The position numbers were made by a program, and so were the translations under genes. The notes under the pieces are model-generated. The model made no database searches. It was not told where the DNA came from and was given only the letters and a program-made list of their open reading frames with translations. Below are positions 4,264 to 64,000 of a DNA stretch of 64,000 bases, piece by piece (position 1 is the stretch's first letter; every line of letters begins with the position of its first letter). The stretch is from an uncultured Propionibacteriaceae bacterium (GTDB lineage Bacteria > Actinomycetota > Actinomycetes > Propionibacteriales > Propionibacteriaceae): NCBI GenBank assembly GCA_938046585.1, contig CALIWR010000005.1, forward strand, positions 69,799 to 133,798, read 5' to 3'.

Positions 4264-5309
4264 CAGGGCTCACCGCTCTCAGAGTCGGCAGGCTGGGATC
4301 CTGCCGGTGCGGGTGCGCTTCGGTCCGAACGGCTGGTTGGTCTGGTGGTCCGGCTGCGTCGCCGGGGCGGGCCGTCAGGCTGCGTCGCCGGGATCTGCGG
4401 GGCCTGACCAGCCTTGGAGCGCTGCAGCAGGGTCTGTAGCGCCTCCTCGTAGATCTCGTCGGGATCCATCCGACGGATCTCCTCGGTCAGTAACTCGTTC
4501 ACGTCGCGGCGTTGCAGCGCGACCACTCGCCGTGGCTGGCCGGGGATCGAGTATGAGGCGGCAGAGCCGTCCTGCCGGGCTACGACGATCGGCCCGCCCA
4601 AAGTCTCCAGGCTCACTGATGTGATCCCCGGGCCGCTGGAGTTCTTCCGGGTCACCTCGACCCCGAGCCGGGCCTGCAACCAGGCGGCCATCAGATCGGC
4701 CGGTGCGTTCTGCCGAGCGGCACTCACCGAGGCCGACAGCACTCGGGTGGGGTGCTGGTCCAGGGCGGCCGCGAGCAGCGCCCGCCACAGGGTGAGCCGG
4801 GTCCAAGCCAGATCGGTGTCGCCGGGGGCGTGGTTAGCCGCCCGCAGCTGGAGCGCCTTCAACGGGGACGGGTCACCGGCAGCGTCCGTGATCCGGCGGC
4901 TGGCGAGCCTACCGAGAGTGTCCAGCGCCGGCTGGGCCGGGCAGGCCGCGGGCCACCAGATCACTACGGGGGAATCCGGCAGCAGCAGCGGCAGCACCGC
5001 CGAGTCGGCGTGCTCGCGCAGATCCCCCGACATCGACAACACGATCACCTCGCCGGGGACATCCTCGGCAAGGTGAATCTCGGCGTCCATCTTGGTGGTC
5101 CGAGACCCGGTGTTGACCACCAGGATCAACCGGCTGGGGTGCTCCCGGGCGGCGACCCGGGCCGCCTCGTACACCTTCGTGTAGGTCCGCTGTTCGGCGG
5201 CCACCAGCAGGGTCAGCACCATCCCGGAGGCGTTGCCTAAGTTACGGCGGGCCCGCAGCAGCGCGGCGGCGATCTCGGAGGATTGTGTGTCGGTGAGGTT
5301 GATGATCAT
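4263..5309 (-). CDS. opcA: glucose-6-phosphate dehydrogenase assembly protein OpcA
   Basis: N-terminus MIINLTDTQSSEIAAALLRARR...GMVLTLLVAAE matches OpcA. The ATG at 5309 is chosen because the longer ORF would overlap the zwf stop, and AGGACAG lies upstream. It sits between zwf and pgl, as in mycobacteria. Confidence 0.8.
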   Translation of the reverse strand: MIINLTDTQSSEIAAALLRARRNLGNASGMVLTLLVAAEQRTYTKVYEAARVAAREHPSRLILVVNTGSRTTKMDAEIHLAEDVPGEVIVLSMSGDLREHADSAVLPLLLPDSPVVIWWPAACPAQPALDTLGRLASRRITDAAGDPSPLKALQLRAANHAPGDTDLAWTRLTLWRALLAAALDQHPTRVLSASVSAARQNAPADLMAAWLQARLGVEVTRKNSSGPGITSVSLETLGGPIVVARQDGSAASYSIPGQPRRVVALQRRDVNELLTEEIRRMDPDEIYEEALQTLLQRSKAGQAPQIPATQPDGPPRRRSRTTRPTSRSDRSAPAPAGSQPADSESGEP

Positions 5310-5319
5310 CTGCTGTCCT

Positions 5320-6855
5320 TCACGGCCTGCGCCACATCCGGCCATCCCGGCGGATCATGTCCAGCCCCGATGGGGGACCCCAGGTACCCGCCGGGTAGGG
5401 TTCGGGGCTGTCGGGGAGACTGGCCCAATAGTCGAGGACCGGATCCAAGATCTGCCAGCCCAGTTCCACCTCCTCCTGCTGCGGGAACAGGGGCGGATCG
5501 CCGAGCAGTACGTCGAGGATCAGCCGTTCGTACGCCTCCGGTGAGGCCTCAGTGAAAGCTCCGCCGTACGAGAAGTCCATGCTGACGTCGCGGATCTCCA
5601 TCTGGGTGCCGGGCACCTTGGAGCCAAAACGGACGATCACTCCCTCGTCGGGTTGGATCCGCATCACGAGCGCATTACGGCTCAGATCCTCGGCATCTAG
5701 CGCGGTGAACGGGCTGTGTGGGACCTTCTTGAAACCGAGCGCGATCTCGGTCACCCGCCGCGGCAGCCGCTTGCCGGTCCGCAGGTAGAAGGGGACCCCG
5801 GCCCAGCGGCGGCTGTCGATGTCGACCCGGATCGCGGCGTAGGTCTCGGTATTCGAGGTGGCCCGGAAGCCTTCCTCTTCGACATAGCCGACGACCGGTC
5901 GGCCTCCAAGCCAGCCGGGGGCGTAGCGGCCGCGGGCTGTGTGCAGGTCGATCCGATCGGGCAGGGTGACCGCTGACAGCACCTTCTGTTTCTCGCGGCG
6001 CAGGTTGGTGGCATCGAATGAGACCGGCTCCTCCATGGCGGTCAGGGCCAACAACTGGAGCAGGTGGTTCTGAATCACGTCCCGGGCGGCGCCGATCCCG
6101 TCGTAGTAGCTGGCCCGGCCACCGACGCCGATCTCCTCAGCCATGGTGATCTGGACATGGTCGACATAGTGGTTATTCCAGATCGGTTCGAACATCTGGT
6201 TCGCGAACCGCAGCGCCAACAGGTTCTGAACCGTCTCCTTGCCCAGATAGTGGTCGATCCGGAACACCGCCTCGGGCGCGAAAACACCCGACAACACCCG
6301 GTTCAGCTCCCTGGCGCTGTCCAGGTTGTGGCCGAACGGCTTCTCGATCACCACCCGGCTCCAGCGTCCGCCGCGGGAGTCGGCGAACTGGTGCTTGCGT
6401 AACTGGTTGATCACCAGCTCGAACAGCCCCGGCGGGATCGACAGGTAGAAGGCGTGATTGCCGCCGGTGCCGTGCAGCTGGTCGAGCTCGGTGACTGTGG
6501 CATGGAGCCGATCCCAGGCGGTGTCGTCGTCCAGGTCACCGGGGACGAAACGAATCCCGTCTAACAACTGCCGCCAGACCTCTTCGCGAAACGGGGTCCG
6601 GGCATGGTCGCGGACCGAGTCGTGGACCAGCTGGGCGAAATCTTGGTCGGCCCAGTCTCGTCGGGCGAACCCCACCAGGCCGAAACCTGGCGGCAGCAGG
6701 CCTCGGCTGGCAAGGTCATAGACCGCGGGCATGACTTTCTTACGGGCCAGATCACCGGTAACCCCGAAGATCACCAGGACGCAGGGCGGCGCGATCTGAG
6801 GCAGTCGCCGGTCCCTCGGGTCCCGCAGGGGATTGGTGAGCTTCTCGTCCGGCAC
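5320..6855 (-). CDS. zwf: glucose-6-phosphate 1-dehydrogenase
   Basis: Contains VIFGVTGDLARKK (NADP-binding), RIDHYLGKE (active-site motif) and EKPFG. GTG start at 6855 is preceded by AAGGAGAGG and gives an N-terminus (VPDEKLTNPLRDPRDRRLPQIAPPCVLVIFG) that aligns with mycobacterial Zwf2. The upstream 44 codons of the ORF are rejected as an extension. Confidence 0.9.
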   Translation of the reverse strand: MPDEKLTNPLRDPRDRRLPQIAPPCVLVIFGVTGDLARKKVMPAVYDLASRGLLPPGFGLVGFARRDWADQDFAQLVHDSVRDHARTPFREEVWRQLLDGIRFVPGDLDDDTAWDRLHATVTELDQLHGTGGNHAFYLSIPPGLFELVINQLRKHQFADSRGGRWSRVVIEKPFGHNLDSARELNRVLSGVFAPEAVFRIDHYLGKETVQNLLALRFANQMFEPIWNNHYVDHVQITMAEEIGVGGRASYYDGIGAARDVIQNHLLQLLALTAMEEPVSFDATNLRREKQKVLSAVTLPDRIDLHTARGRYAPGWLGGRPVVGYVEEEGFRATSNTETYAAIRVDIDSRRWAGVPFYLRTGKRLPRRVTEIALGFKKVPHSPFTALDAEDLSRNALVMRIQPDEGVIVRFGSKVPGTQMEIRDVSMDFSYGGAFTEASPEAYERLILDVLLGDPPLFPQQEEVELGWQILDPVLDYWASLPDSPEPYPAGTWGPPSGLDMIRRDGRMWRRP

Positions 6856-6932
6856 GGCGCCCCTCTCCTTGGCTGTCTTCGCACAACCTACCGCCCTCCC
6901 CGCAGGGAGGATGGTGTCAGTGGGCGGGCTGG

Positions 6933-8138
6933 TTACAGAGCCGACCCTTTGCGGTACTGATCGTAGGAGACGTTCCAGTCGGTCCACCCGTTGCCGGTCT
7001 CCAGGCCACGTTTGGTGCCGGTCACCTCGATCAGGTCACCGACGCGGCAGTTCTGGAACAGCCAGGCGCCGTGCTCAGTGGAGACCCCGATACAGCCGTG
7101 GCTGACGTTGGCCTTGCCCTGACTGCCGACCGACCACGGGGCGGCATGGATGAACTCCCCGGAATCAGTCTCCCGCATCGCGTACCGGACATCGGGGATG
7201 TTGTAGTACTCCGGGCTGCCCGGTTCGATGCCGACCGAGTTGGCGTCCATCTTGAGGGTGGAGAATTTCTCCATCACGACCTTCTTGCCGCTGCGGGTCT
7301 CGAAACCGGGCTTGCCTCCGGTGATCGGGATGGTCCGAGCCGGGGCGCCGTCGATGACCACCGTCATCTGGTGGCTGGCGAGGTCGGCTTTGAGGATCAC
7401 CGAACGGGCGATGGTCATGGACCCGGACACCGACTTTTGCCCGTACCGGCCGTTACCGGCCGGGATCGAGTTGATGTCGATCTCGATGCTGACCTTGGTC
7501 CCCGGCTTCCATAGTTCCCGCGGCCGCCAGTGGGCCTCGGTGGAGGACAGCCAGTTCCAGGAACCCTCGGTTGCCGGGGTGGCGGTGACTCTCATGTGCT
7601 TCTGGAACGAGGCCCGGTCGGTGACCGGGACATCGAAACGTACCACCACCGGCATCGCGACCCCGACCGTGCCGCCGGAGGCGATCGTGGCGAAGACTTG
7701 CTGCTTGAGTGACAGGGCCTGGGTGGTGAACGTGGCGGTCCGACTGGTCGAGACCCCAGCGGTGCTCTGGCCCTGCATGGCGATCTGATAGGTCATCCCC
7801 GGCTCCAGCAGGCTGTTCGCGGTCCAGGTGGCGGCGTCTGGGGCCAGGGTGCCCTGCACGGTCTGCGGGCCAGCCTTCGGGTCGGTGTAGGTCATAGTGA
7901 CGGCGACCAGGGTCCCCTGGGTGGCGGTGACTGAAACCTTGGTATCGACCGGGACCTGAGCTCCCTCGGCGACATTGGGGGTCATCACTACCTCCGGCGG
8001 CGCGGCAGTCGAAGCGGCCGAGGCTGGACCGTCAGCCTCCGGCTTCGAACCGCCGGGGGTCTTCTGGGCACAGCCACTGACCGTGGCGGCGGTGCCGGCG
8101 CCCAACAGCGCCACCACCGTACGGCGGGAGAGCGTCAT
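6933..8138 (-). CDS. L,D-transpeptidase lipoprotein (YkuD domain, LdtMt2-like)
   Basis: Signal peptide with lipobox (TVSGC), two Ig-like N-terminal domains and a C-terminal catalytic motif HAAPWSVGSQGKANVSHGCIGVS (the His/Cys of the YkuD fold). Confidence 0.85.
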   Translation of the reverse strand: MTLSRRTVVALLGAGTAATVSGCAQKTPGGSKPEADGPASAASTAAPPEVVMTPNVAEGAQVPVDTKVSVTATQGTLVAVTMTYTDPKAGPQTVQGTLAPDAATWTANSLLEPGMTYQIAMQGQSTAGVSTSRTATFTTQALSLKQQVFATIASGGTVGVAMPVVVRFDVPVTDRASFQKHMRVTATPATEGSWNWLSSTEAHWRPRELWKPGTKVSIEIDINSIPAGNGRYGQKSVSGSMTIARSVILKADLASHQMTVVIDGAPARTIPITGGKPGFETRSGKKVVMEKFSTLKMDANSVGIEPGSPEYYNIPDVRYAMRETDSGEFIHAAPWSVGSQGKANVSHGCIGVSTEHGAWLFQNCRVGDLIEVTGTKRGLETGNGWTDWNVSYDQYRKGSAL

Positions 8139-8202: not shown

Positions 8203-9444
8203 TCACAGAGCGGACCCCTTCTTGAACTGCTCGTAGGTGATGTTCCAGTCGGTCCATCCATTGCCATTCTCCAAAGCCCGGGAACTGCCGGTGTAGACCA
8301 CCGGGTCGCCGACCTGAGTGTTGGCCATCAACCAGTCAGCGTTGTCGGTACTCATCCCGACACAGCCGTGACTGACGTTGCGCTTGCCCTGGGAGCCGAC
8401 CGACCACGGGGCGGCATGGATGAACTCGCCGGACTGGGTGACCCGCATCGCGTACTTGACGCCCTTGAGATCGTAGAACTCGGGGGAGTTCCGGTTGGTT
8501 CCGGTGGTGCCGGCGTTCATGTCCACTGCGTCCAGGCGCTCCATGATTACCTTGGTTCCCGAGCGGGTCTCGAAGCCCGACTTGCCGGCGGTGATCGGGA
8601 TGACTCTGGTCGGTTGCCCGTTCACGAGGTGGGTGGCGGTGTGAGCCGCCAGGTCGACGTTGATTTGGGCGGCCCGGCCGATGGTGAAACCGGCTCGCTT
8701 CGACTCCTGCCCGTACCGGCCATCACCAGCGTTAACCCCGTTCACGTCGATATTGATGTCCACCTGGGTGCCGGGCTGCCAGTAGACCTCCGGCCGCCAG
8801 TGGGCCTGCGTGTCTGAGATCCAACTCCAGGTGCCGTTCTGGGCCGGTGTGCTGGTGACGTGCATGTGGCGCTGGAAACTGGCCTTGTCCGCAATCGGCG
8901 TGTCGAAACTCACTACCACCGGCATGGCGACCCCCACGGTCTGCCCAGCGCCGATGATGTTGTAGACGAAGACCTGCTGCTTCAGGCTCAGCGGCGCTGT
9001 GGAGAAACTGACCGTCCTGCTGACCGGTTCGCCGGAGTTGGCGCTGGCCTGCACCACGGCCGTGTACGAGACCCCGGGCTCGAGCAAGCTGGCGGCGGTC
9101 CAGGTGGTCTGGTCGGCGGAGACCTCGCCCGCAACGGTCTTCTTCTCCGGGCGTGGGTCGGTCGAGGTCAAGCTGACCGAGGTCACTGTGCCGCCGCTGG
9201 CGACCGCCATGAAGCGGTGGTCCACCGGGACCTGGCCCCCGTCGCCCACGCTTGTGGTCAGGCTGAACGGGCCCTGGCTCGGGGTCGGCGACGAGACCGG
9301 TGACGGTGAAGTGTCTGTGGTCGCGGTGGAGGTGGCCGCCGGCGTCTGAGACACGGTGCCGGTGCCGCTGCAGGCAGCCACCAAGGCGACCAGGAGCACG
9401 ACAAACGGGACGAGGGCAATGCGTTGACGAGTAGCCGAGTTCAC
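8203..9444 (-). CDS. L,D-transpeptidase lipoprotein, tandem paralog
   Basis: Lipobox LVAACSG. Same architecture and catalytic motif (HAAPWSVGSQGKRNVSHGCVGMS) as the neighbouring gene. Visual alignment of the two translations suggests roughly 55-60% identity (not computed). Confidence 0.85.
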   Translation of the reverse strand: MNSATRQRIALVPFVVLLVALVAACSGTGTVSQTPAATSTATTDTSPSPVSSPTPSQGPFSLTTSVGDGGQVPVDHRFMAVASGGTVTSVSLTSTDPRPEKKTVAGEVSADQTTWTAASLLEPGVSYTAVVQASANSGEPVSRTVSFSTAPLSLKQQVFVYNIIGAGQTVGVAMPVVVSFDTPIADKASFQRHMHVTSTPAQNGTWSWISDTQAHWRPEVYWQPGTQVDINIDVNGVNAGDGRYGQESKRAGFTIGRAAQINVDLAAHTATHLVNGQPTRVIPITAGKSGFETRSGTKVIMERLDAVDMNAGTTGTNRNSPEFYDLKGVKYAMRVTQSGEFIHAAPWSVGSQGKRNVSHGCVGMSTDNADWLMANTQVGDPVVYTGSSRALENGNGWTDWNITYEQFKKGSAL

Positions 9445-19235: not shown

Positions 19236-20674
19236 CCCAGACCCAGCCGACCGTCCCTGGCCTCGGCGGGACCCAAGATGAACATTTGGAGGCCCTCGGC
19301 ACGTACCGCTTCGGCTGGCACGACAGCGACGCCGCCGGAGCTTCGGCGCGACGTGGTCTCAATGAGGCGGTGGTCCGCGACATCTCGGCCAAGAAGAACG
19401 AGCCACAATGGATGCTGGAACGTCGGCTCAAGGCGCTGCGGATGTTCGACCGTAAACCGATGCCGACCTGGGCCGCTGACCTGTCGGAGATCGACTTCGA
19501 CTCCATTAAGTACTTTGTCCGCTCCACCGAGAGGCAGGCCTCCAGCTGGGAAGAGCTGCCGGCGGACATTAAGAACACGTACGACCGGCTGGGGATCCCC
19601 GACGCCGAGAAGAAACGTCTGGTAGCTGGGGTCGCTGCCCAGTACGAGTCGGAGGTCGTCTACCACAAGATCAACCAGGAACTTGAGCGGCAGGGCGTGA
19701 TCTTTCTCGACACCGACACCGGTCTGCGGGAGCATCCCGAGATCTTCGAGGAATACTTCGGGTCGGTAATCCCGGCCGGCGATAACAAATTCGCCTCCCT
19801 GAACACGGCCGTCTGGTCGGGGGGCTCTTTCGTCTACGTGCCCAAGGGTGCCCAGGTGTCGATCCCGCTGCAGGCATACTTCCGTATCAACACCGAGAAC
19901 ATGGGCCAGTTCGAACGGACCCTGATCATTGTCGACGAGGACGCCTACGTCCACTACGTCGAAGGCTGCACCGCGCCGATCTACAAATCTGATTCGCTGC
20001 ATTCGGCGGTGGTCGAGATCATCATCAAGAAGGGTGCCCGCTGCCGGTACACGACCATCCAGAATTGGTCGAGTAACGTGTACAATCTGGTCACCAAACG
20101 CGCCACCTGCGCGGAGGGCGCCACCATGGAATGGATTGATGGCAACATCGGTTCCAAGGCCACCATGAAGTACCCGGCGGTCTGGTTGCTGGGTGAGCAT
20201 GCTCGCGGTGAAACCCTTTCGATCGCCTTCGCTGGCGAGGGCCAGCACCAGGACACCGGGTCCAAGATGGTGCACGCTGCCCCACATACCTCAAGTTCGA
20301 TCGTGTCGAAATCTGTCTCCCGGGGCGGAGGTCGGACCTCATACCGAGGCCTGGTGCATGTCAACCCGGGAGCCCATCACGCGGCCAGCTCGGTGAAATG
20401 CGATGCATTGTTGGTCGACACCATCAGCCGTTCCGATACCTATCCCTACGTTGATGTCCGCGAGGACGATGTCTCCATGGCCCATGAGGCCACCGTTTCC
20501 AAGGTCTCCGAGGATCAGCTGTTCTACCTGATGAGCCGGGGGATGGGCGAGGACGAGGCGATGGCCATGATCGTGCGAGGTTTCGTCGAGCCGATCGCCC
20601 GGGAATTGCCGATGGAGTACGCGCTGGAATTGAACCGGCTGATCGAACTGCAGATGGAAGGGGCGGTGGGCTGA
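19232..20674 (+). CDS. sufB: Fe-S cluster assembly protein SufB
   Basis: 480 aa and alignable throughout to SufB (FxxKxxxP region, [14 protein letters not shown]-terminal beta-helix). Confidence 0.95.
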
Positions 20675-20675
20675 C

Positions 20676-21830
20676 GTGACGGCCACCAACAGCACAGACG
20701 CGGTCCGCCAGGCGGTGGAGACCGTCGAATCACACCTGCATCCGACCCCTTCCTGGTCACTCGCCGACCACCCAGTGCCGACCGGTCGGGAGGAGATCTG
20801 GCGGTTCACCCCGATCCGGCAGATCCGTCCCCTGCTCGACGACCGGTCCGGTGACCCCCTGGACTGGCAGATCCACTGCCCTGGCGCGGTCTCTAGCCGG
20901 GTGATTGGCAGCGTCGAGGCCCAGCAATTGGCCGCCGAAGCACCGGTCGACCGGGTCGCCGCGCTCGCGGCCCACCACGCCGGTAGCGCCCGGCTGGTGG
21001 AGATCCCGGCCGAGGCCGAGCTCGCTGAACCCGTCACCATCGACCTGACCGGCCAGGGGCGGCAGGCCTGGGGCCATCTGGTGGTCCAGGTTGGGCATCA
21101 CGCCAAAGCCACGATCATCCTCACCCACCAGGGCAGTGCCCGGTACGCCGCCAAGACTGACCTGTTGGTCGGCGACGGTGCCCAGGTCACCTTCGTCTCA
21201 GTGCAGGACTGGGCTGACGACAGCCTGCACGGCGCACAAAGCTCGGTACTGGTCGGGGTCGACGCTGCGGTCCGCACCGTGAGCATCACCCTGGGCGGGA
21301 AACTGGTCCGGATCGCTGAAACCGCCCGCTACCAGGGCCCGGGGGGGCGGCTGGAACAGCTCGGGCTGTACTTCGTGGACGCCGGCCAGCACGTCGAGCA
21401 CCGGCTCTTCGTCGACCACAACCAGCCCCGTACCGAGTCCGAGGTCGACTATCGCGGCGCCCTGCAGGGCGAGGGGGCCCACTCGGTGTGGGTGGGGGAC
21501 GTGCTGATCCGGAAAGTCGCCGAACAGATCACGACGTACGAGTCGAATAAGAACCTGCTGCTTACCGACGGCTGCCGCGCCGACTCGGTACCCAATCTGG
21601 AGATCGAGACCGGTGAGATCCACGGCGCTGGCCATGCTTCCACCACGGGGCGTTTCGACGACGAGCAACTGTTTTACCTGACCAGCAGGGGAATCCCCAC
21701 CGAGGAGGCCCGGCGACTGGTAGTCCGCGGTTTCTTCGCCACGATTATCGCCAAGATCGGAGCTCCCGAGCTTGAACAGCGGCTACTGGAGGTCGTCGAG
21801 GCCGAGCTGGCGAAGTCGGTGAGTGTATGA
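20676..21830 (+). CDS. sufD: Fe-S cluster assembly protein SufD
   Basis: 384 aa SufB/D-family beta-helix protein lacking the SufB N-terminal region, placed between sufB and sufC. Confidence 0.9.
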   Translation: MTATNSTDAVRQAVETVESHLHPTPSWSLADHPVPTGREEIWRFTPIRQIRPLLDDRSGDPLDWQIHCPGAVSSRVIGSVEAQQLAAEAPVDRVAALAAHHAGSARLVEIPAEAELAEPVTIDLTGQGRQAWGHLVVQVGHHAKATIILTHQGSARYAAKTDLLVGDGAQVTFVSVQDWADDSLHGAQSSVLVGVDAAVRTVSITLGGKLVRIAETARYQGPGGRLEQLGLYFVDAGQHVEHRLFVDHNQPRTESEVDYRGALQGEGAHSVWVGDVLIRKVAEQITTYESNKNLLLTDGCRADSVPNLEIETGEIHGAGHASTTGRFDDEQLFYLTSRGIPTEEARRLVVRGFFATIIAKIGAPELEQRLLEVVEAELAKSVSV

Positions 21831-56803: not shown

Positions 56804-57313
56804 CTACCCGAAGATCACGGCCAGCAAGATGATCAGAGTTGGGAGCCCGAGGATGACTCCCAAGATCCCGAGCGTAATGCCCAGCCCCCGGCGTTTCTGC
56901 GGCTCGAAACCGAGGGCGCCCGCGGCGAACTGGTGAAACGGCGGGGCATACCAGAGGCGGATCTGCTGCCCCGGTTCCGGATTGAGGTTAATCTCTGCCT
57001 TACCGAAGGTGACCAGCCACTGCATGCTGATGCCCAGGTGCAGAGGACCGGCCGGCACCGGGATGGTGTTCAGGCCGTAGTTCAGGGTCCGGGGGAAACC
57101 GTTCAGGGTGGCCGAGGGCGGGACGATGCTGCTGCTCAGCATGCTGCCCTGCACTGTGAGCTGGATCACCGCCGGCTGGCTCGCCACATTCGCGTTCCCC
57201 TGCGGAAATCCCGGCTGCGGCTGAGGGGCGGGGCCCGGCTGGGGCTGCCCGTACTGCGGGGTTGGTGTGGGATTCGGCTGAGGCTGTTCGTACGGCTGCG
57301 GCTGGTAAGTCAC
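56804..57313 (-). CDS. proline/glutamine-rich membrane-anchored protein
   Basis: N-terminal PQP repeats (QPQPYEQPQPNPTPTPQYGQPQPGPAPQPQPG), a central globular segment and a C-terminal TM helix (GITLGILGVILGLPTLIILLAVIFG). Confidence 0.55.
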   Translation of the reverse strand: MTYQPQPYEQPQPNPTPTPQYGQPQPGPAPQPQPGFPQGNANVASQPAVIQLTVQGSMLSSSIVPPSATLNGFPRTLNYGLNTIPVPAGPLHLGISMQWLVTFGKAEINLNPEPGQQIRLWYAPPFHQFAAGALGFEPQKRRGLGITLGILGVILGLPTLIILLAVIFG

Positions 57314-57442: not shown

Positions 57443-58042
57443 ATGCCGGTGATCATCAAGAAGAAACTCGTTGTCGGCGCCGCAGCGCTGCTAGCCGGGG
57501 GTGGGATCGCGCTCGGGGTGGCGTCCATGGCCACCGCTGATCAAGCCGGCCCGGGGGCCGCGCACCCCAGCGCTGTCGCCGGCCGGGCCCACGCCCCGAA
57601 CCCGGATGGTTCTGGTCAGGTCGACGGCAAGGAAGGTCGTCCCCGCCATAGCGAGGTAACCGGTGAGGAGGCGACCAAGGTGGCGGCGGCGGTCACTGCG
57701 AAGGACTCGGCGGTCACGGTCGAGAAGGTCATGAAAGACGAGGACGGCTCCTACCATGCGCTGGGCACCAAGAACGGCTCCCGGGTTCACTACCAGGTAA
57801 GCGCTGATCTGGCCACGGTCACCGAGGCCGCTGATCGGGGCCCCGGCCGGGGCCAGCCGGCGAACGCGGACGAGACGGCCAAGGTCACCGCCGCGATCAC
57901 CGCAAAGTATCCGGGCGTGACCATCGACAAGGTGTCCAAGACCACCGACGGGTCGTTCCTGGCCCGGGGCACCAAGGACGGTAAGCGGGTCGGCTATCAG
58001 GTGAGTGCCGACCTGAACACCATCACGGAACGTACTCGATAG
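57443..58042 (+). CDS. secreted protein with two PepSY domains
   Basis: Signal peptide and two tandem repeats: [51 protein letters not shown] and [63 protein letters not shown]. Confidence 0.7.
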
Positions 58043-58164
58043 GCCTGCCTGGCCCGGCGGGGCCCCGTCCCCAGCGGCGGGGTTTCGCCGGGTGTGATGC
58101 GCCGAGCGGGTTGGCGGCAGTAGGCTCCTGCGCGATCAGAACCCGGCCGATGAAGGAGTCTCGC

Positions 58165-59952
58165 GTGGCCGTTACCAGGATGTCGCACCTCTTTGTCCGT
58201 ACCTTGCGGGAGGCCCCGGCCGATGCTGAGCTGCCGAGCCACCAGTGGCTGGTCCGGGCTGGCTACATCCGCCGGGCGGCGCCGGGGATCTATTCCTGGC
58301 TGCCGTTGGGGCTCAAAGTGCTAGCGAAGGTGGAGCAGATCGTACGGGAGGAGATCGAGGCGATCGGGGCCCAGGAGGTCCGTTTCCCAGCGCTGCTGCC
58401 GAAGGACCCGTATCAGGCTACCGGCCGCTGGGACGAGTACGGCCCGACCCTGTTCCGGCTGCAAGACCGCAAGGGCGCTGACCTGCTGCTCGGACCGACC
58501 CACGAGGAATTGTTCACGCTGCTCGTGAAAGACCTGTATTCCTCGTACCGGGATCTGCCGTTGATCCTGTACCAGATCCAGACCAAATACCGTGACGAGG
58601 CCCGCCCTCGGGCCGGGTTGTTACGCGGACGCGAATTCGTGATGAAGGATTCGTACAGCTTCGATCTGGACCCGGACGGGCTGGCGGCCAGCTACCAGCG
58701 CCACCGCGAGGCGTACATCAAGGTGATGGACCGTCTCGGCTTGGAGTATGTGATCGTCAAGGCCACCTCCGGCGCGATGGGCGGCTCGGCCTCGGAGGAG
58801 TTCCTGGCGGTCGCCGCGAACGGAGAGGACACCTTCGCCCGCTCACCCGGCGGATACGCGGCAAACGTGGAGGCGGTGGTGGTGAACCCGCCCGAGCCGG
58901 TCGACGCCAGCCAGGTCCCGGCCCCGACCCGTGTCACCACCCCGGAGGCGGGGACCATCGAGGCCCTGGTGACTGCGCTGAACGAGATGGCACCCCGCCC
59001 GGACCGGCCCTGGGAAGCAGGCGACACGTTGAAGAACGTGGTGCTGATGCTGCGTCACCCTGGCGGTCGCACCGAGCCCCTGGTGATCGGGCTGCCCGGC
59101 GACCGGGAAGTCGACCCGAAACGGCTAGAGGCGGCGGTTGCCCCGGCCGAGGCGGTGCCGTTCACCGACGCCGACTTTGAGCAGCATCCGCTGCTGGTGA
59201 AAGGCTACATTGGCCCAGCCGCCGGCGGCGCCCAGCTGTTGGGGGAGAAGGCCCCGGCCCGGATCCGGTACCTGGTCGACCCGCGGGTGGTCGAGGGCAG
59301 CGCTTGGGTGAGCGGCGCCAACGTCGTCGACACCCACCTGGTGAACCTGGTGATGGGCCGTGACTTCACCGCCGACGGCAGCATCGACGTCGCCGAGGTC
59401 CGCGCTGGGGATCCGGCCCCCGACGGCTCGGGGCCGCTGGAACTCGCCCGAGGGGTGGAGATGGGCCACATTTTCCAGCTCGGCACCAAATACGCCGAGG
59501 CGCTCGGGCTGCAGGTGCTGGACCAGAACGGCAAGCTCCGGACCGTGACCATGGGTTCGTACGGGATCGGGATCTCGCGGGCGGTGGCGATGGTCGCTGA
59601 GACCACCTGCGACGAACGGGGTCTGGCCTGGCCGCGGGCGCTCGCCCCGTACGACGTGGTGGTGTTGGTCGCTGGCAACGGCGAGCGACAGGTGGCGGAG
59701 GCCGAGCGGATCGCGTCGGAGCTGTCCGGAGCCGGGCTGGAGGTGCTGATCGACGACCGGAAGGCGTCGCCCGGGGTGAAGTTCACCGACGCCGAGGTGC
59801 TCGGGATACCGACCGCGGTCATCGTCGGCCGGGGGCTGGCCCAAGGCCTGGTCGAGGTCCGGGACCGAGCCTCAGGTGATCAGTGCGATGTCGCGCTCGA
59901 GGACGCGGTCAGATACGTGGTGGCCGCCGTTCAGGACGGATCCCACCGCTGA
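58165..59952 (+). CDS. proS: proline--tRNA ligase (bacterial-type, with editing domain)
   Basis: N-terminus [33 protein letters not shown]...YSWLPLGL matches ProS. Class II motifs are present (FRDE region [24 protein letters not shown]). GTG start with GAAGGAG 6 nt upstream; the 18-codon ORF extension is rejected. Confidence 0.95.
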
Positions 59953-59971: not shown

Positions 59972-60337
59972 TTATCGCGGGGGTGCGGTGTTGACCCGCG
60001 GCGGTGGGCTGGCTGCCCAGGAATCCGGGACCGGCCCGACGTCTTCCCGGTCGGACCGGATCGTCCAGACCTGGCCCGGGCACAGCCGCTCCAGCCCGCC
60101 ACCGCCAGGCGAGCCGGCCCAGGACAGATCGCGTAGCTCACAGGAGGCGTCGGTGACTGCACTGACCGCCTCTCCCGGGAGCAGCCGGTAGCTCCAGAAT
60201 GTGTTCCCGGTGACCCAGGTCACCTGAACCTGAGTTGGAGAGTCATTCCAGACGTACGCCCGGGCCGGGGCGGCGCAGCCGGCAGTCCCGGCCGTCAGGG
60301 CGGCGGCCACCAGCGAAAACAGCAATGCCTTGCCCAT
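59972..60337 (-). CDS. small lipoprotein/secreted protein of unknown function
   Basis: MGKALLFSLVAAALTAGTAGCAAPA signal and lipobox, then a ~95-aa mature domain with two Cys. Convergent with proS. Confidence 0.5.
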   Translation of the reverse strand: MGKALLFSLVAAALTAGTAGCAAPARAYVWNDSPTQVQVTWVTGNTFWSYRLLPGEAVSAVTDASCELRDLSWAGSPGGGGLERLCPGQVWTIRSDREDVGPVPDSWAASPPPRVNTAPPR

Positions 60338-60485
60338 GACGTCACCCTAACTCACGAGCCGCGAGCTGGCTGGCGCCAGGCGAGCCGGCCTTCCAGACGT
60401 TTCTCCCTCTTGACAGGAGGCCGGCCGGCGGCAGAAGCTGATACCAGAGTCCTGGCAAGCCCGGGTTGGATTGTCGTGGAGGTGA

Positions 60486-60884
60486 CCATGTCTGTTTCAC
60501 GATCGGCTATCAAGACTGGCGCTATGCCTGTGTCTGACGTTCCCAGCCACTCCCGCGGATGCGGGCTGGTACCGGGAGCATCTCAACGGCGATCAAGGGG
60601 TCCATGCCTACGGTGCCGTGTACCTGAGTTTCGTCTACGCTGTGAACGAGGCTCACGTGCGCGTAACCAAGCCTCGTGGGCATGCTGGCTACTCGTGGGG
60701 AAGTGTCCAGTCGTATGGGCGAAGCGCAACGATAGAGAACCCTCACACGACTATCACGTCATACGTGTACACGAGAAAGTCTGCCTATTATGGCGCGGGA
60801 TCCGGGATTACCAAGGGCCAAGCATGTGTGGACATCCCGTTCTGGTTCGACAGCTGCAGTGAGGCAGATGTCGGTCCCGCGTAG
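60486..60884 (+). CDS. small secreted Tyr/Gly/Ser-rich peptide, candidate bacteriocin-like precursor; start/frame anomalous
   Basis: Frame 0 is open from 60486 and encodes ...RLALCLCLTFPATPADA|GWYREHLNGDQGVHAYG...YYGAGSGITKGQACVDIPFWFDSCSEADVGPA. The first segment is signal-peptide-like with an A-x-A site. Frame 0 has no ATG/GTG/TTG before M60618, only CTG 60492. Strong GGAGGTGA SD at 60478-60485. ATG 60488 is in the +2 frame. Local GC is ~55%. Confidence 0.4.
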   Translation, partial: PCLFHDRLSRLALCLCLTFPATPADAGWYREHLNGDQGVHAYGAVYLSFVYAVNEAHVRVTKPRGHAGYSWGSVQSYGRSATIENPHTTITSYVYTRKSAYYGAGSGITKGQACVDIPFWFDSCSEADVGPA

Positions 60885-61611
60885 AGCTGTCGGCAGCGAG
60901 CCGGGGCTGCGGTTTGAGGCAGTCAGCCACCGATATGGGCGGCGGGGGAGACCGGTCATCGACACTCTCTCGTTCGTGCTCCAGGTCGGGGTCACGGGTC
61001 TTGTCGGCGTCAACGGCGCCGGAAAGACCACCCTGATCCGGATGGCGGCCGGGGCGCTGGCCCCGTGGCGGGGAACAGTGTCCTGCGGCGACGCTGATCT
61101 GTACCGGGACCAGCGCCGCCGGGGCCTGTCTCGGATCGCCTGGATGCCGCAGACCGCGCTGTCAGTGCCGGGACTGACCGCTCACGAGCTCGTTACCTAC
61201 ACCACCTGGATGCGGGGCTGTTCGTGGACCGAGGCCCGTCGACGGGCCACGCAGGCCCTCGACGCGGTCGAGCTCAGCGCCCGCGCCAGCTCACGTACCG
61301 GTCGGCTCTCGGGCGGGATGGTGAGACGGGTTTGGCTGGCGCAGGCTCTGGCTGCCCAGTCGCAGGTGCTGCTGCTAGACGAACCCAGCACCGGGCTGGA
61401 TCCTCGGCAGCGGGCCACTATGGTCCGGCTGCTCGGGCAGATCACCGACCGCGTGGTGCTGCTGTCGAGCCACATCCTGGAGGACGTGGCCGAGCTGGCG
61501 GACCGGGTTCTGGTCCTGGACCAGGGCCGGATCGTCTACGACGGTGACCGCCCGGCCTGTCTGGACGCCGCCTGGTTCCAGCGCCAGACCGGGGCTGGGG
61601 GTGAGCCGTGA
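60868..61611 (+). CDS. ABC transporter ATP-binding protein
   Basis: Walker A GVNGAGKTT, signature LSGGMVRRVWLAQAL and Walker B LLLLDEP. ATG 60868 is preceded by GAGG and overlaps the 3' end of the peptide gene by 17 nt. The longer 5' ORF is rejected. Confidence 0.8.
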   Translation: MSVPRRAVGSEPGLRFEAVSHRYGRRGRPVIDTLSFVLQVGVTGLVGVNGAGKTTLIRMAAGALAPWRGTVSCGDADLYRDQRRRGLSRIAWMPQTALSVPGLTAHELVTYTTWMRGCSWTEARRRATQALDAVELSARASSRTGRLSGGMVRRVWLAQALAAQSQVLLLDEPSTGLDPRQRATMVRLLGQITDRVVLLSSHILEDVAELADRVLVLDQGRIVYDGDRPACLDAAWFQRQTGAGGEP

Positions 61612-62390
61612 GACCGCTGGGGCTGTGGCTGCGCAGCAGCTGGTGGCTGAGCCCGATGATGCTGCTGGCTTTCGGCTCGGGACTGCTGCGGGGCAGTGCG
61701 TGGCGGTGGGACTGGTCGTGGATGTTCTCCCTGGTCACCGGCTCCACCCTGCTGGCATCGCCGCTGCTGGCCACGGCGGCGGTGGTAGTGATGCTGCGCT
61801 CCTACCCGCGGGGGCTGCTGGACCTGACGAGCGTCACGCCCCGCGGCGGCTTGGTTCCGTTCCAGGCCGGGGCGGCGTTGTGGCTGCAGGCGATGCTCAG
61901 CTATGCGCTCTGCCTGGGGGTAGGCGCCTACTGGTGCCAACAGTACGAGGCAGACCAGCGCGGGCTGGTTCTGCCCTGGCAGTTGCTGACCGCCCCGGCG
62001 GCCTTGGCGGCTGCGGTGGCGCTGGGATTGCTGGTGGGACTGCTGGTGCGTTCGCCCTGGGCGGTTCCGGCGGTGACCGTCGGGCTGTTTCTCGGCCACC
62101 GTCCGCTGTACTGGACGTCGCTGCCTGAGCTGGTAACCCTCACGATGGCGACCGGGTCGATGGCGAATGCTGGATTCCGCCCGGCGCCTTCGCACCTGGC
62201 CGCCACGGTAGCGGTGAACCTGCTGCTGGCGCTGGCGGCCTGTGCGCTGCTGCACCGCTTCGGCCACCCGAGCGGGGCCCGGCCCCGACGCTGGCTGGTA
62301 ATCGCGGCGGCGCTCCTGGCGGCACTGCTCGTCGTGATGGGGTGGGGCTGGGGTGATGCCTACCAGCCGATCCCGGCATCACCGGCATGA
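61608..62390 (+). CDS. integral membrane protein (ABC-2-type permease-like, ~6 TM)
   Basis: 260 aa, highly hydrophobic, overlaps the ATPase stop (GTGA). Likely permease partner. Confidence 0.6.
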   Translation: MRPLGLWLRSSWWLSPMMLLAFGSGLLRGSAWRWDWSWMFSLVTGSTLLASPLLATAAVVVMLRSYPRGLLDLTSVTPRGGLVPFQAGAALWLQAMLSYALCLGVGAYWCQQYEADQRGLVLPWQLLTAPAALAAAVALGLLVGLLVRSPWAVPAVTVGLFLGHRPLYWTSLPELVTLTMATGSMANAGFRPAPSHLAATVAVNLLLALAACALLHRFGHPSGARPRRWLVIAAALLAALLVVMGWGWGDAYQPIPASPA

Positions 62391-62998
62391 TCTGGGTGGT
62401 GGCCCGGGCCCGGGGCCTGCTGATCTTCGCCGGGGTGCTGCTGGCCAGTGCTGTGGCGGCCTGGGTAGCTGGCCGGGTACAAGCCAACCTGCCGCTCGCC
62501 GACGGGCCCCGCTACCTGCGGCAGTACCTGGTGGCCTTCCTGCCGGCCGGGATGGGCCCGGCCCTACCCGACCGGCTGCCGGGGCTCTCGGCCACCTTGC
62601 TGCGGGAGCCGCTGCTGCGCCGCTGCACCCTGCTGCTCTACTGGGGTGGGCTGGGGCTTGTGCTGGGCCCGGGTTGGGTTTCTCGGCCCGGCCAGCTGAC
62701 GACGTACGAGATCATGACCTGCCTGGTGCTGGGGACGGTGGTGCTTGCCGTCACCGCCCGCTGGGGGGTCCACGGGGTGCTGGTCGGGCTGTTACTCGGG
62801 CTGGTCTGGATGCTGGCCGGGGATTCGATCGGAGTCGCGATCGGCTTTCCCGGTATCGCTTTCCAGCGCCCCGGCGACCCGGAGCTGGGCGTGGCCAGCC
62901 ACATCCCGGTCCTGCTGGGCGCCGCTGCGTTCGCGGCGGCTGCCGCCAGCGTCGGGCTACTGCGATCCACCCGTGTCGCCGCCGACGAGCAGGCCTGA
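62387..62998 (+). CDS. second integral membrane protein of the cluster
   Basis: 203 aa, ~5-6 TM, ATGA overlap with the preceding gene. Confidence 0.55.
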   Translation: MIWVVARARGLLIFAGVLLASAVAAWVAGRVQANLPLADGPRYLRQYLVAFLPAGMGPALPDRLPGLSATLLREPLLRRCTLLLYWGGLGLVLGPGWVSRPGQLTTYEIMTCLVLGTVVLAVTARWGVHGVLVGLLLGLVWMLAGDSIGVAIGFPGIAFQRPGDPELGVASHIPVLLGAAAFAAAAASVGLLRSTRVAADEQA

Positions 62999-63021: not shown

Positions 63022-64000
63022 GTGAGCAAAACCTGGCCGGGCGTACAAGGTGAACTCGCCCTGGCCGGGCTACGCGACGCGGACCCCACCGGCCTGCTCG
63101 CGCAGATCGACCGGATCATCGTCTGGGATCTGCCGCTGCGGACCCGCTTTCGAGGCCTGACCCGCCGCAATGGCCTGCTCCTGCACGGCCCCCTAGGCTG
63201 GGGCGAGGTCGCCCCTTTCTGGGACTATGACGCGCCGGCCAGCGCCCCTTGGCTCGCCGCCGGCCTAGAACAGGCGACGAGCGACCTTACGAGCCTGCCC
63301 GTACATCGCGCGCAGATCCCCGTCAACGTCACCATCCCTGAAGTCGATGGCGACACGGCTCGGGACCTGGTCGCCGCCGCTGGCGCGACCACCGCCAAGG
63401 TCAAGGTCGCCGGGTCCGACGACAGTCTCGCCGCCGACCTGGAACGGCTCGCCGCCGTACGCGCTGCGCTCGGACCGCAGGGACGGGTACGCATCGACGT
63501 CAACGGGGCCTGGGACCTGGCGACCGCCAAGACTCTTCTGCCGCGCCTGGACCGGGAGGCCGGTGGCCTGGAATACGTCGAACAGCCCTGCCGGGAGGTG
63601 ACCGAGCTCGCCGCCCTGCGGCGCGCCCTGGACATCCCGATCGCCGCGGACGAGGCCATCCGGCTGTCTGCGGACCCCGTGGCAGTCTGCCGACTGGGGG
63701 CCGCCGACATCGCGGTACTCAAGGTCGGGCCGCTGGGCGGGATCCGACGAGCCCTGGCCCTGGCCGAGAGACTGGGGCTGCCCGCGGTTGTCTCGTCTGC
63801 CCTGGACACGAGTGTCGGGCTAGGGGCGGGCGCTGTTCTCGCCGCCGCTCTACCCGATCTGGGATACGCCTGCGGTTTGGGGACCAGCAGCCTCTTGGCA
63901 GCGGATGTGGCGTTGCCGTCGGTCGTGCCGCGTGGCGGCTTGTTGCCGCTGCGACCGGTCGAGGTTTCGGAGCCGCTCCTCGCCGCCGCCGGGGCCGGCG
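63022..64000 (+). CDS. menC: o-succinylbenzoate synthase (enolase superfamily), 3'-truncated at window edge
   Basis: Translation aligns throughout with actinobacterial MenC: VWDLPLRTRFRG, TAKVKVAG, VRIDVNGAWD (Mg ligand), EYVEQPC, IPIAADEAIR, AVLKVGPLGG, VVSSALDTSVG. No stop occurs before the window end. GTG start is uncertain. Confidence 0.8.
   Translation, partial: MSKTWPGVQGELALAGLRDADPTGLLAQIDRIIVWDLPLRTRFRGLTRRNGLLLHGPLGWGEVAPFWDYDAPASAPWLAAGLEQATSDLTSLPVHRAQIPVNVTIPEVDGDTARDLVAAAGATTAKVKVAGSDDSLAADLERLAAVRAALGPQGRVRIDVNGAWDLATAKTLLPRLDREAGGLEYVEQPCREVTELAALRRALDIPIAADEAIRLSADPVAVCRLGAADIAVLKVGPLGGIRRALALAERLGLPAVVSSALDTSVGLGAGAVLAAALPDLGYACGLGTSSLLAADVALPSVVPRGGLLPLRPVEVSEPLLAAAGAG

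Follow-up and report, generated by a model that had tools for sequence, protein, structure and literature searches.

The window analysed here is a stretch of 64,000 nucleotides (nt) of contig CALIWR010000005.1 (positions 69,799 to 133,798, forward strand) from an uncultured Propionibacteriaceae bacterium, and positions below are numbered from its first letter. Towards its right end, at 60338-62998, four plus-strand features lie downstream of a minus-strand gene for a probable lipoprotein: the gene of a small secreted protein (referred to here as the peptide), an ATP-binding cassette (ABC) ATPase gene, and two genes for membrane proteins, TM1 and TM2. The locus is bounded upstream by proS and downstream, 24 nt past TM2, by an enolase-superfamily gene that runs off the window (Table 1). 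An earlier note on this DNA, made by reading the letters without database searches, had described these four plus-strand features as a low-GC islet with bacteriocin/immunity-like architecture, and much of its description stands: the ATPase does overlap the 3' end of the peptide frame (by 17 nt, with the stop at 60882-60884), the two polytopic membrane proteins are coupled to it and to each other by 4-nt start/stop overlaps (61608-61611 and 62387-62390), and the TTGACA hexamer and Shine-Dalgarno sequence are found where they had been placed.

The dip in G+C content (GC) reported earlier is also present, with values of 0.565-0.62 over 60400-60900 (200-nt intervals) against about 0.69-0.75 in the flanks, and it extends to codon usage, as the earlier note had proposed to check: the peptide open reading frame (ORF) has a GC of 0.585 and a third-position GC (GC3) of 0.65, while the neighbouring genes have GC3 values of 0.80-0.88. 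The ORF contains the second-lowest 400-nt interval in the 64 kb (0.5825; mean 0.666, sd 0.030), and similarly low GC occurs at several other places in the window, such as 19351-20750. The TTGACA hexamer is kept in two diverged relatives, L013 and L002, despite otherwise diverged intergenic DNA; a promoter scan around it found no complete sigma-70 site and no matching -10 element.

Table 1. Features of the locus and its boundaries, in window coordinates.
Feature	Position	Strand	Remarks
proS	58111-59952		Upstream boundary of the locus
Probable lipoprotein, 121 aa (amino acids), divergent	59972-60337	-	Signal peptide, then Cys, and two more Cys; candidate fifth member of the module
TTGACA, -35-like hexamer	60410-60415	+	Seen in the sequence; also present in L013 and L002
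Shine-Dalgarno GGAGGTGA	60478-60485	+	Aligns with AGGAGGAG (L013) and GAGGAGGG (L002)
Frame-0 open stretch, rest of the secreted-protein gene	60486-60884	+	Stop TAG 60882-60884; probable pseudogene
Ancestral start ATG (60488-60490) and signal-peptide n-region (MSVSRSAIKT...)	60488-60520	+	Frame 2; break within or just after this stretch
55-bp segment absent from L007	60652-60706	+	Second out-of-frame lesion in the peptide gene
ABC ATPase, 247 aa, DrrA/ABCA-like (ABC-2 class) nucleotide-binding domain	60868-61611	+	PF00005, E 6e-25
TM1, polytopic membrane protein, 260 aa	61608-62390	+	About six predicted helices; unannotated family
TM2, membrane protein, 203 aa	62387-62998	+	About four to five predicted helices; unannotated family
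Enolase-superfamily gene (MenC/o-succinylbenzoate-synthase-like)	63022-64000	+	Downstream boundary; runs off the window

The peptide gene of the window is very probably a pseudogene, inactivated by a frameshift. The ATG at 60488, which is the codon served by the Shine-Dalgarno sequence, is in frame 2, and the signal core and mature domain are read in frame 0. A TGA at 60483-60485 closes this frame upstream, and from 60486 onwards it contains no ATG, GTG or TTG before the GTG at 60618, already 18 codons inside the mature domain; its only non-canonical start candidates are CTG codons at 60492 and 60516. It reads ...LSRLALCLCLTFPATPADA, includes the signal-like hydrophobic stretch LALCLCLTFPATPADA with an h/c-region ending at A-D-A (to 60563), and continues into a mature domain of 106 aa, GWYREHLNGDQ...CVDIPFWFDSCSEADVGPA (60564-60881), that is rich in Tyr, Gly, Ser and Thr and has two Cys. 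Reading from ATG 60488 in frame 2 yields an Arg/Cys-rich, off-frame sequence of 124 aa (MSVSRSAIKTGAMPVSDVPSHSRGCG...) that ends at TGA 60860-60862 and forms part of a longer plus-strand ORF (60410-60862; 150 aa, TTG start). A frame-0 product would show GWYREHLNGDQGVHAYGAVY... and a frame-2 product MSVSRSAIKTGAMPVSD....

Comparison with the intact gene of L013, which occupies 4879-5286 of a metagenome-assembled genome (MAG) contig and has residues 29-135 as its mature part, locates the break. In a DNA alignment the -35 hexamer, Shine-Dalgarno sequence and ATG of L013 all match up with those of the window, and the distance from the ATG to the last base of A-D-A is 84 nt in L013 and 76 nt (3x25+1) in the window, the missing 8 nt falling within the hydrophobic core of the signal peptide; there is therefore a genuine frameshift between the start and the remainder of the coding sequence. 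The frame-2 stop sits 5 nt ahead of the ATPase ATG at 60868, and translational coupling to the downstream genes thus survives the lesion. Programmed frameshifting and transcriptional slippage were considered as means of rescue and rejected, as the sequence has neither a slippery nor a homopolymer motif and frame 2 has no stop close to the break. The intact small ORF of the earlier note consisted of two reading frames joined by eye, the ATG in one and the leader and mature region in the other; its A-D-A leader, its mature region of about 105 aa and its two Cys all lie in frame 0. Gene callers report just an 88-aa fragment from GTG 60618 (P0001), and for annotation the ORF is best handled as a pseudogene.

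The start region is identical in three more assemblies of the same species (L001, L007 and L014, at 99-99.6% identity), and since the break is the same in four independent assemblies it is not an assembly error. Decay appears to be continuing: L007 lacks 55 bp of the gene (Table 1), the sole indel across 6.1 kb of alignment. When single nucleotide polymorphisms (SNPs) of the three assemblies are pooled against the window, the ratio of nonsynonymous to synonymous changes is 5:2 in the peptide ORF and 7:20 across six of its neighbours (one-sided Fisher test, p=0.038), with none nonsynonymous and six synonymous in the ATPase gene, and SNP density is 1.9% in the peptide ORF against 0.55% in the six genes, a 3.4-fold difference (Poisson P=0.006). 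This pattern suggests the relaxed constraint expected of a recently dead gene, and diversifying selection would look similar. We note that four of the five nonsynonymous SNPs in the peptide ORF lie within 14 nt (60697-60710) at the 3' edge of the stretch that L007 lacks, a position that maps to a variable loop in the family alignment.

The gene could still function if translation began at CTG 60492 from the same Shine-Dalgarno sequence, giving the product M/L-FHDRLSRLALCLCLTFPATPADA|GWYRE..., and several features fit such a start: frame 0 is open without a stop for 131 codons past this CTG, a GGAGG lies 9 nt upstream, the predicted leader runs from a charged n-region (D, R, R) through a hydrophobic core to A-D-A, and the break is fixed in four assemblies with no further stops in three. 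We nonetheless consider it improbable, as a strong and better-spaced ATG, matched in the alignment by the real start codon of the intact orthologue, lies just 4 nt upstream, the hydrophobic core is shorter than in L013, no slippery or homopolymer site is available to restore the frame, and the gene carries an excess of nonsynonymous polymorphism and, in one strain, an out-of-frame 55-bp deletion. Initiation at CTG is, moreover, rare and weak in bacteria.

Whatever its present state in the window, the peptide belongs to a real, if very small, family. The frame-0 peptide is 52-59% identical, depending on the region compared, to the intact 135-aa protein of L005 and L013. A word-indexed search returned one match only, the same-species fragment P0001; phmmer, run exhaustively against 1.84 billion cluster representatives, gave six matches at E<=0.001, five of them true, and a profile search added P0010-P0012, for a family total of about eight clusters. 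P0007, a repetitive protein of 709 aa, was set aside as a low-complexity false positive. True members are precursors of 135-143 aa in which a positive N-terminus and a hydrophobic core lead up to an A-x-A site, either AQA or AHA, and in which the mature part, 106-115 aa long, is rich in Tyr/Trp/Phe, Ser/Thr and Gly; each has exactly two Cys, placed C-terminally in the loop GKACVD[IV]P[FW]WFDxC (Cys-x9-Cys). Between the window and L013 the ratio of nonsynonymous to synonymous divergence (pN/pS) of the peptide is 0.41, with pS saturated, and that of the neighbouring genes is 0.31-0.48, so that purifying selection must have acted through most of the history of this frame.

These data bear on the suspicion that the ORF is nothing but a chance open frame in high-GC DNA, which the absence of a canonical start and the abundance of off-frame ORFs here, exemplified by the 150-aa frame-2 ORF, might otherwise encourage. 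At least 7 other lineages have homologues (24-59% identity) that possess proper start codons and signal peptides and keep the same gene order, and pN is well below pS. The earlier note had held that the ORF would have to be regarded as spurious if the peptide lacked conservation in homologous cassettes; it is conserved there, and for that reason a spurious ORF is already refuted and can be discarded for practical purposes. Family members are unnamed in every source checked. The window peptide has no Pfam match at E<=1, none of the eight members matches bacteriocin families at E<=10, the peptide profile has no matches among PDB sequences at E<=10, and tblastn of the peptide against PLSDB plasmids gave none.

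The three genes that follow encode a putative ABC transporter of which only the ATPase is recognizable. The ATPase ORF spans 60790-61611, with ATG 60868 its likeliest start, as called in the same-species contig L007. Its best NCBIfam match is the DrrA subfamily (135 bits, E 2e-39, short of the cut-off of 312 bits), NodI-type and PQQ-ABC models are also near, with the protein below every curated cut-off, and the nearest solved structures are the nucleotide-binding domains of ABCA4, ABCA3, ABCA7 and ABCA1 (E 1e-39 to 7e-44); judged by sequence, it belongs to the ABC-2 class. Homologues of TM1 (28-99% identity) always follow the ATPase gene, and TM2 has an invariant motif, P-L-x-D-G-P-R, past its first helix. 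Neither has a Pfam, NCBIfam, PADLOC or PDB match, and ABC2_membrane-type Pfam models match none of six TM1 homologues (E<=10) and not the TM2 of the window (E<=1). The lipoprotein has no match in Pfam or NCBIfam, and searching Pfam, NCBIfam and PADLOC with the lipoprotein, the peptide and both membrane proteins gave nothing meaningful.

The order peptide, ATPase (233-247 aa), TM1 (254-260 aa), TM2 (193-203 aa) is found in all seven lineages with readable context, namely the window, L005/L013/L015, L008-L010, L011, L012, the P0009 contig and L016, and it is almost certain that this constitutes a real conserved module. The ATPase gene of L008 is intact, and L005 and L013 carry intact peptide genes of 135 codons' product length. 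Two of the high-GC contigs on which the module lies carry a taxonomic label, as Propionibacteriaceae and Actinomycetia MAGs; L005, L013 and L015 are Actinomycetia or uncultured Propionibacteriaceae MAGs, and most loci are high-GC metagenomic contigs. A scan of GTDB genomes with the TM1 profile found one species, an uncultured Propionibacteriaceae MAG, and a metagenome scan found four further loci; each scan used a single degenerate pattern, and both numbers are undercounts. Four lineages have a homologue of the lipoprotein gene beside the cassette, namely the window species, L002-L004, L005/L013 and L011, and in L011 the upstream neighbour is not proS but a different gene; being found beside the cassette in two different contexts, the lipoprotein gene seems to travel with it. 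In the P0009 contig (JGI 3300075153) a truncated gene of 137 aa, one of 200 aa and one of 135 aa of no assigned family lie upstream of peptide, ATPase and TM1; they may be what remains of another cassette in tandem, together with one more small protein.

The nearest other species, represented by L002-L004 (68% identity in TM1), illustrates a further state of the locus. It retains the lipoprotein, ATPase, TM1 and TM2 genes at the same proS-adjacent site and has just 122 bp at the position of the peptide gene, in which tblastn found no trace of the peptide. Within this stub, L002 positions 9113-9212 still hold the TTGACA hexamer (9113-9118), a GAGGAGG and an ATG at 9175 that opens a mini-ORF of 11 codons (MPGPGAAVQVR), which ends in a TGA (9208-9210) overlapping the start codon of the ATPase gene (ATG at 9210). 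We infer that the mini-ORF is the stump of an excised peptide gene, and it looks as if the stump was kept for translational coupling. Because the cassette is found without the peptide and the peptide never without the cassette, loss is one-directional. Downstream of the cassette, L002 and L013 both have a minus-strand double-ABC ATPase gene where the window has its MenC-like gene.

The earlier note took the GC dip as a sign of horizontal acquisition, and this part of its account needs to be divided. Among the genes of the module, only that of the peptide has an unusual composition in the window, and as the ABC genes are host-like in GC3 and syntenic with two diverged relatives, the whole 2.7 kb is not a recent islet here. 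Elsewhere there are hints that the module is mobile. In L013 (about 4800-7400; likewise L005 and L015) the entire four-gene cassette has a GC of 0.59-0.64 and GC3 of 0.65-0.74 between flanks of 0.70-0.75, with a GC3 of 0.81 in the adjoining lipoprotein gene; L008 has an IS256-type transposase gene (PF00872; 31-1311, minus strand) about 210 bp upstream of the peptide gene, and no lipoprotein gene at that place; and L011 and L012 carry the cassette in other genomic contexts. The cassette composition in L013, the transposase in L008 and the contexts in L011 and L012 suggest that the module moves. The peptide family, whose cassettes the note had proposed to check for a sporadic distribution, is extremely rare and patchy. 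The difference between L013, in which the whole cassette is low in GC, and the window, in which the peptide gene alone is so, could possibly reflect allelic replacement or uneven amelioration.

Further upstream in the window, beyond proS, lie a plus-strand gene for a 199-aa signal-peptide protein with two internal repeats (57443-58042) and a minus-strand gene for a 169-aa Pro/Gln-rich protein with a hydrophobic anchor at its C-terminus (56804-57313); Pfam searches with both gave nothing significant and a single below-cut-off match (E 0.009).

What might such a module do? By analogy, we favour a secreted bacteriocin-like toxin with immunity conferred by the ABC proteins and the lipoprotein, a reading to which we give close to an even chance and which, from the architecture and the evolutionary pattern, stays the best one available. 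What is observed is that every intact member carries a Sec-type leader, that gene junctions are tight or overlap, that the peptide is strictly linked to the cassette and its loss is asymmetric, and that the family is rare and patchy. On this model Sec would export an antagonistic bacteriocin-like protein of about 11.5 kDa with a C-terminal Cys-x9-Cys loop, and the envelope of the producer would be protected by the ABC complex, possibly assisted by the lipoprotein as a surface-exposed co-factor; a protective role is likely for the complex because Sec already exports the protein and no pump is needed for its secretion. In the window, the net +1 frame break between the retained ATG and Shine-Dalgarno sequence and the signal-peptide core would inactivate the toxin, translation from ATG 60488 would yield an unrelated product of 124 aa while keeping the pump genes coupled, and the host would most likely be a former producer, now an immune non-producer that keeps the protective cassette. 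More tentative, and rather below an even chance, is the joint proposal that the peptides are Sec-dependent bacteriocins of a new family, about 11-12 kDa in size, with a beta-sandwich fold and a disulfide loop and found solely in Propionibacteriaceae-like actinobacteria, and that their immunity machine is of a new type, combining an ABC-2 ATPase and a lipoprotein with two novel membrane proteins unrelated to each other.

A number of observations weigh against a toxin with its immunity. Only the ATPase matches a described family, and both toxin and immunity are inferred from architecture and evolutionary pattern. Lipids or small molecules are the usual export substrates of ATPases of the ABCA/DrrA class. 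Half of the members of the peptide family have a net charge near zero, and many bacteriocins are cationic. The best structural model of the peptide is all-beta (predicted local distance difference test score, pLDDT, of 64, with the other four models below 40) and resembles only generic beta-sandwiches. An hhalign comparison of TM1 with TM2 gave a probability of 0.2%, so that they are not detectable paralogues, and the AlphaFold2 model of TM1, built from a 4-sequence alignment, has a pLDDT of 44, too low for a fold search. No regulator, second peptide or processing gene adjoins the cassette. Low-level initiation at CTG 60492, 9 nt past the GGAGG, would leave some product in the window, and the gene is best called probably dead.

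Several of the same observations lend themselves to a different account, in which the module is an envelope or export system whose ABC-2 pump would export a lipid, a glycolipid or another small molecule, with the secreted protein and the lipoprotein as extracytoplasmic partners (carrier, acceptor or wall-associated factor) and the secreted one a dispensable accessory. The proximity of the ATPase to DrrA/NodI-type families and to the nucleotide-binding domains of ABCA lipid transporters favours it, as do the predicted peptide fold, a generic Ig-like or carbohydrate-binding-module-like beta-sandwich, the near-neutral charge of several peptide members, and the host-like GC of the cassette at a stable proS-adjacent site in three related lineages. 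It accommodates less easily the strict linkage of peptide and cassette with loss in one direction only, the extreme rarity and patchiness of the peptide family, and the adjacent insertion sequence in L008 and GC anomaly in L013; for these reasons an accessory competitive trait fits better, and we regard the envelope account as the foremost alternative, though somewhat unlikely. The bacteriocin/immunity architecture seen in the earlier note is thus sustained in so far as the peptide lies upstream of the same ATPase, TM1 and TM2 in all readable lineages, and falls short in its comparison with lactococcin 972, to which we return below.

If the toxin and immunity interpretation is correct, the module represents a new bacteriocin family and a new ABC-based form of self-protection in Propionibacteriaceae-like bacteria. 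The architecture alone will not surprise specialists; the new part is the undescribed family, with four of the five module proteins belonging to no described family, together with a natural allelic series in which the peptide gene is intact in one species, frameshifted and fixed so in the window species, further deleted in one strain, and excised in the nearest relative. On the same interpretation this series, recorded in public metagenomes, would capture producers becoming immune non-producers, and would provide a compact example of bacteriocin loss with immunity retained.

Comparison with known systems places the module close to several. The earlier note likened it to lactococcin-972-type (Lcn972) clusters, with which it may share, going by the low-confidence peptide model, a Sec-dependent, unmodified, bacteriocin-type beta-sandwich protein encoded beside ABC-type genes. 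Membership in that family is very improbable: the peptide has no PF09683 match in the search that the note had proposed, the likeness of fold is generic, and the peptide size, disulfide loop, membrane partners and ATPase subfamily all differ. The partners in Lcn972 clusters are one large multi-pass 'bacteriocin-associated' membrane protein and an ATPase of the Lcn972 group; such partners are not seen here, where the membrane proteins have 260 and 203 aa and no NCBIfam match, and the Lcn972-group ATPase model is not among the best 25 NCBIfam matches of the module ATPase. A search of the literature on lactococcin 972 and on 'formosin' yielded nothing that bears on the peptide family.

With DrrAB- and ABCA-type (ABC-2, type V) exporters the module shares an ATPase domain closest to DrrA, NodI and ABCA and the separate, translationally coupled ATPase and membrane-protein genes. 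It differs from them in an ATPase that scores below every curated cut-off, in membrane subunits of no described family (the TM1 model being of low confidence, as noted above), and, with respect to DrrAB-type loci, in the conserved secreted-protein gene upstream. The LanFEG/LanI immunity systems of lantibiotics are similar in having one ATPase gene, two membrane-protein genes and a small lipoprotein gene beside a secreted-peptide gene, and the module ATPase falls in the same broad ABC-2 class (TIGR03740 match, E 1e-27). It reaches only 97 bits against the TIGR03740 cut-off of 309.75, however, and whereas LanE and LanG are related ABC-2 permeases, no kinship is detectable between TM1 and TM2, and neither of them matches an ABC-2 membrane model. 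There are no lanthipeptide precursor or modification genes at the locus between proS and the MenC-like gene, and unlike lantibiotics the module peptide uses Sec.

A further parallel comes from the same bacterial family, in the propionicin T1 locus (pctA and orf2) of Propionibacterium thoenii, where a small protein with a Sec signal also precedes an ABC-like gene. Propionicin T1 is unmodified and has a typical Sec signal peptide, with the ABC-transporter-like orf2 close behind, and orf2 has been proposed to provide immunity and not export, since Sec takes care of secretion (PMC5756557). By description propionicin T1 is a cationic protein of 65 aa in its mature form with one downstream ABC-like protein, whereas the module has a mature protein of 106-115 aa that is accompanied by a separate ATPase, a lipoprotein and two membrane proteins. 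In the module, the gene of a Sec-signal small protein stands immediately upstream of ABC genes in seven lineages, in frameshifted form in the window. The module thus fails membership of both Lcn972 and LanFEG, and in its gene arrangement it resembles Sec-dependent bacteriocin loci with ABC immunity, and LanFEG/LanI.

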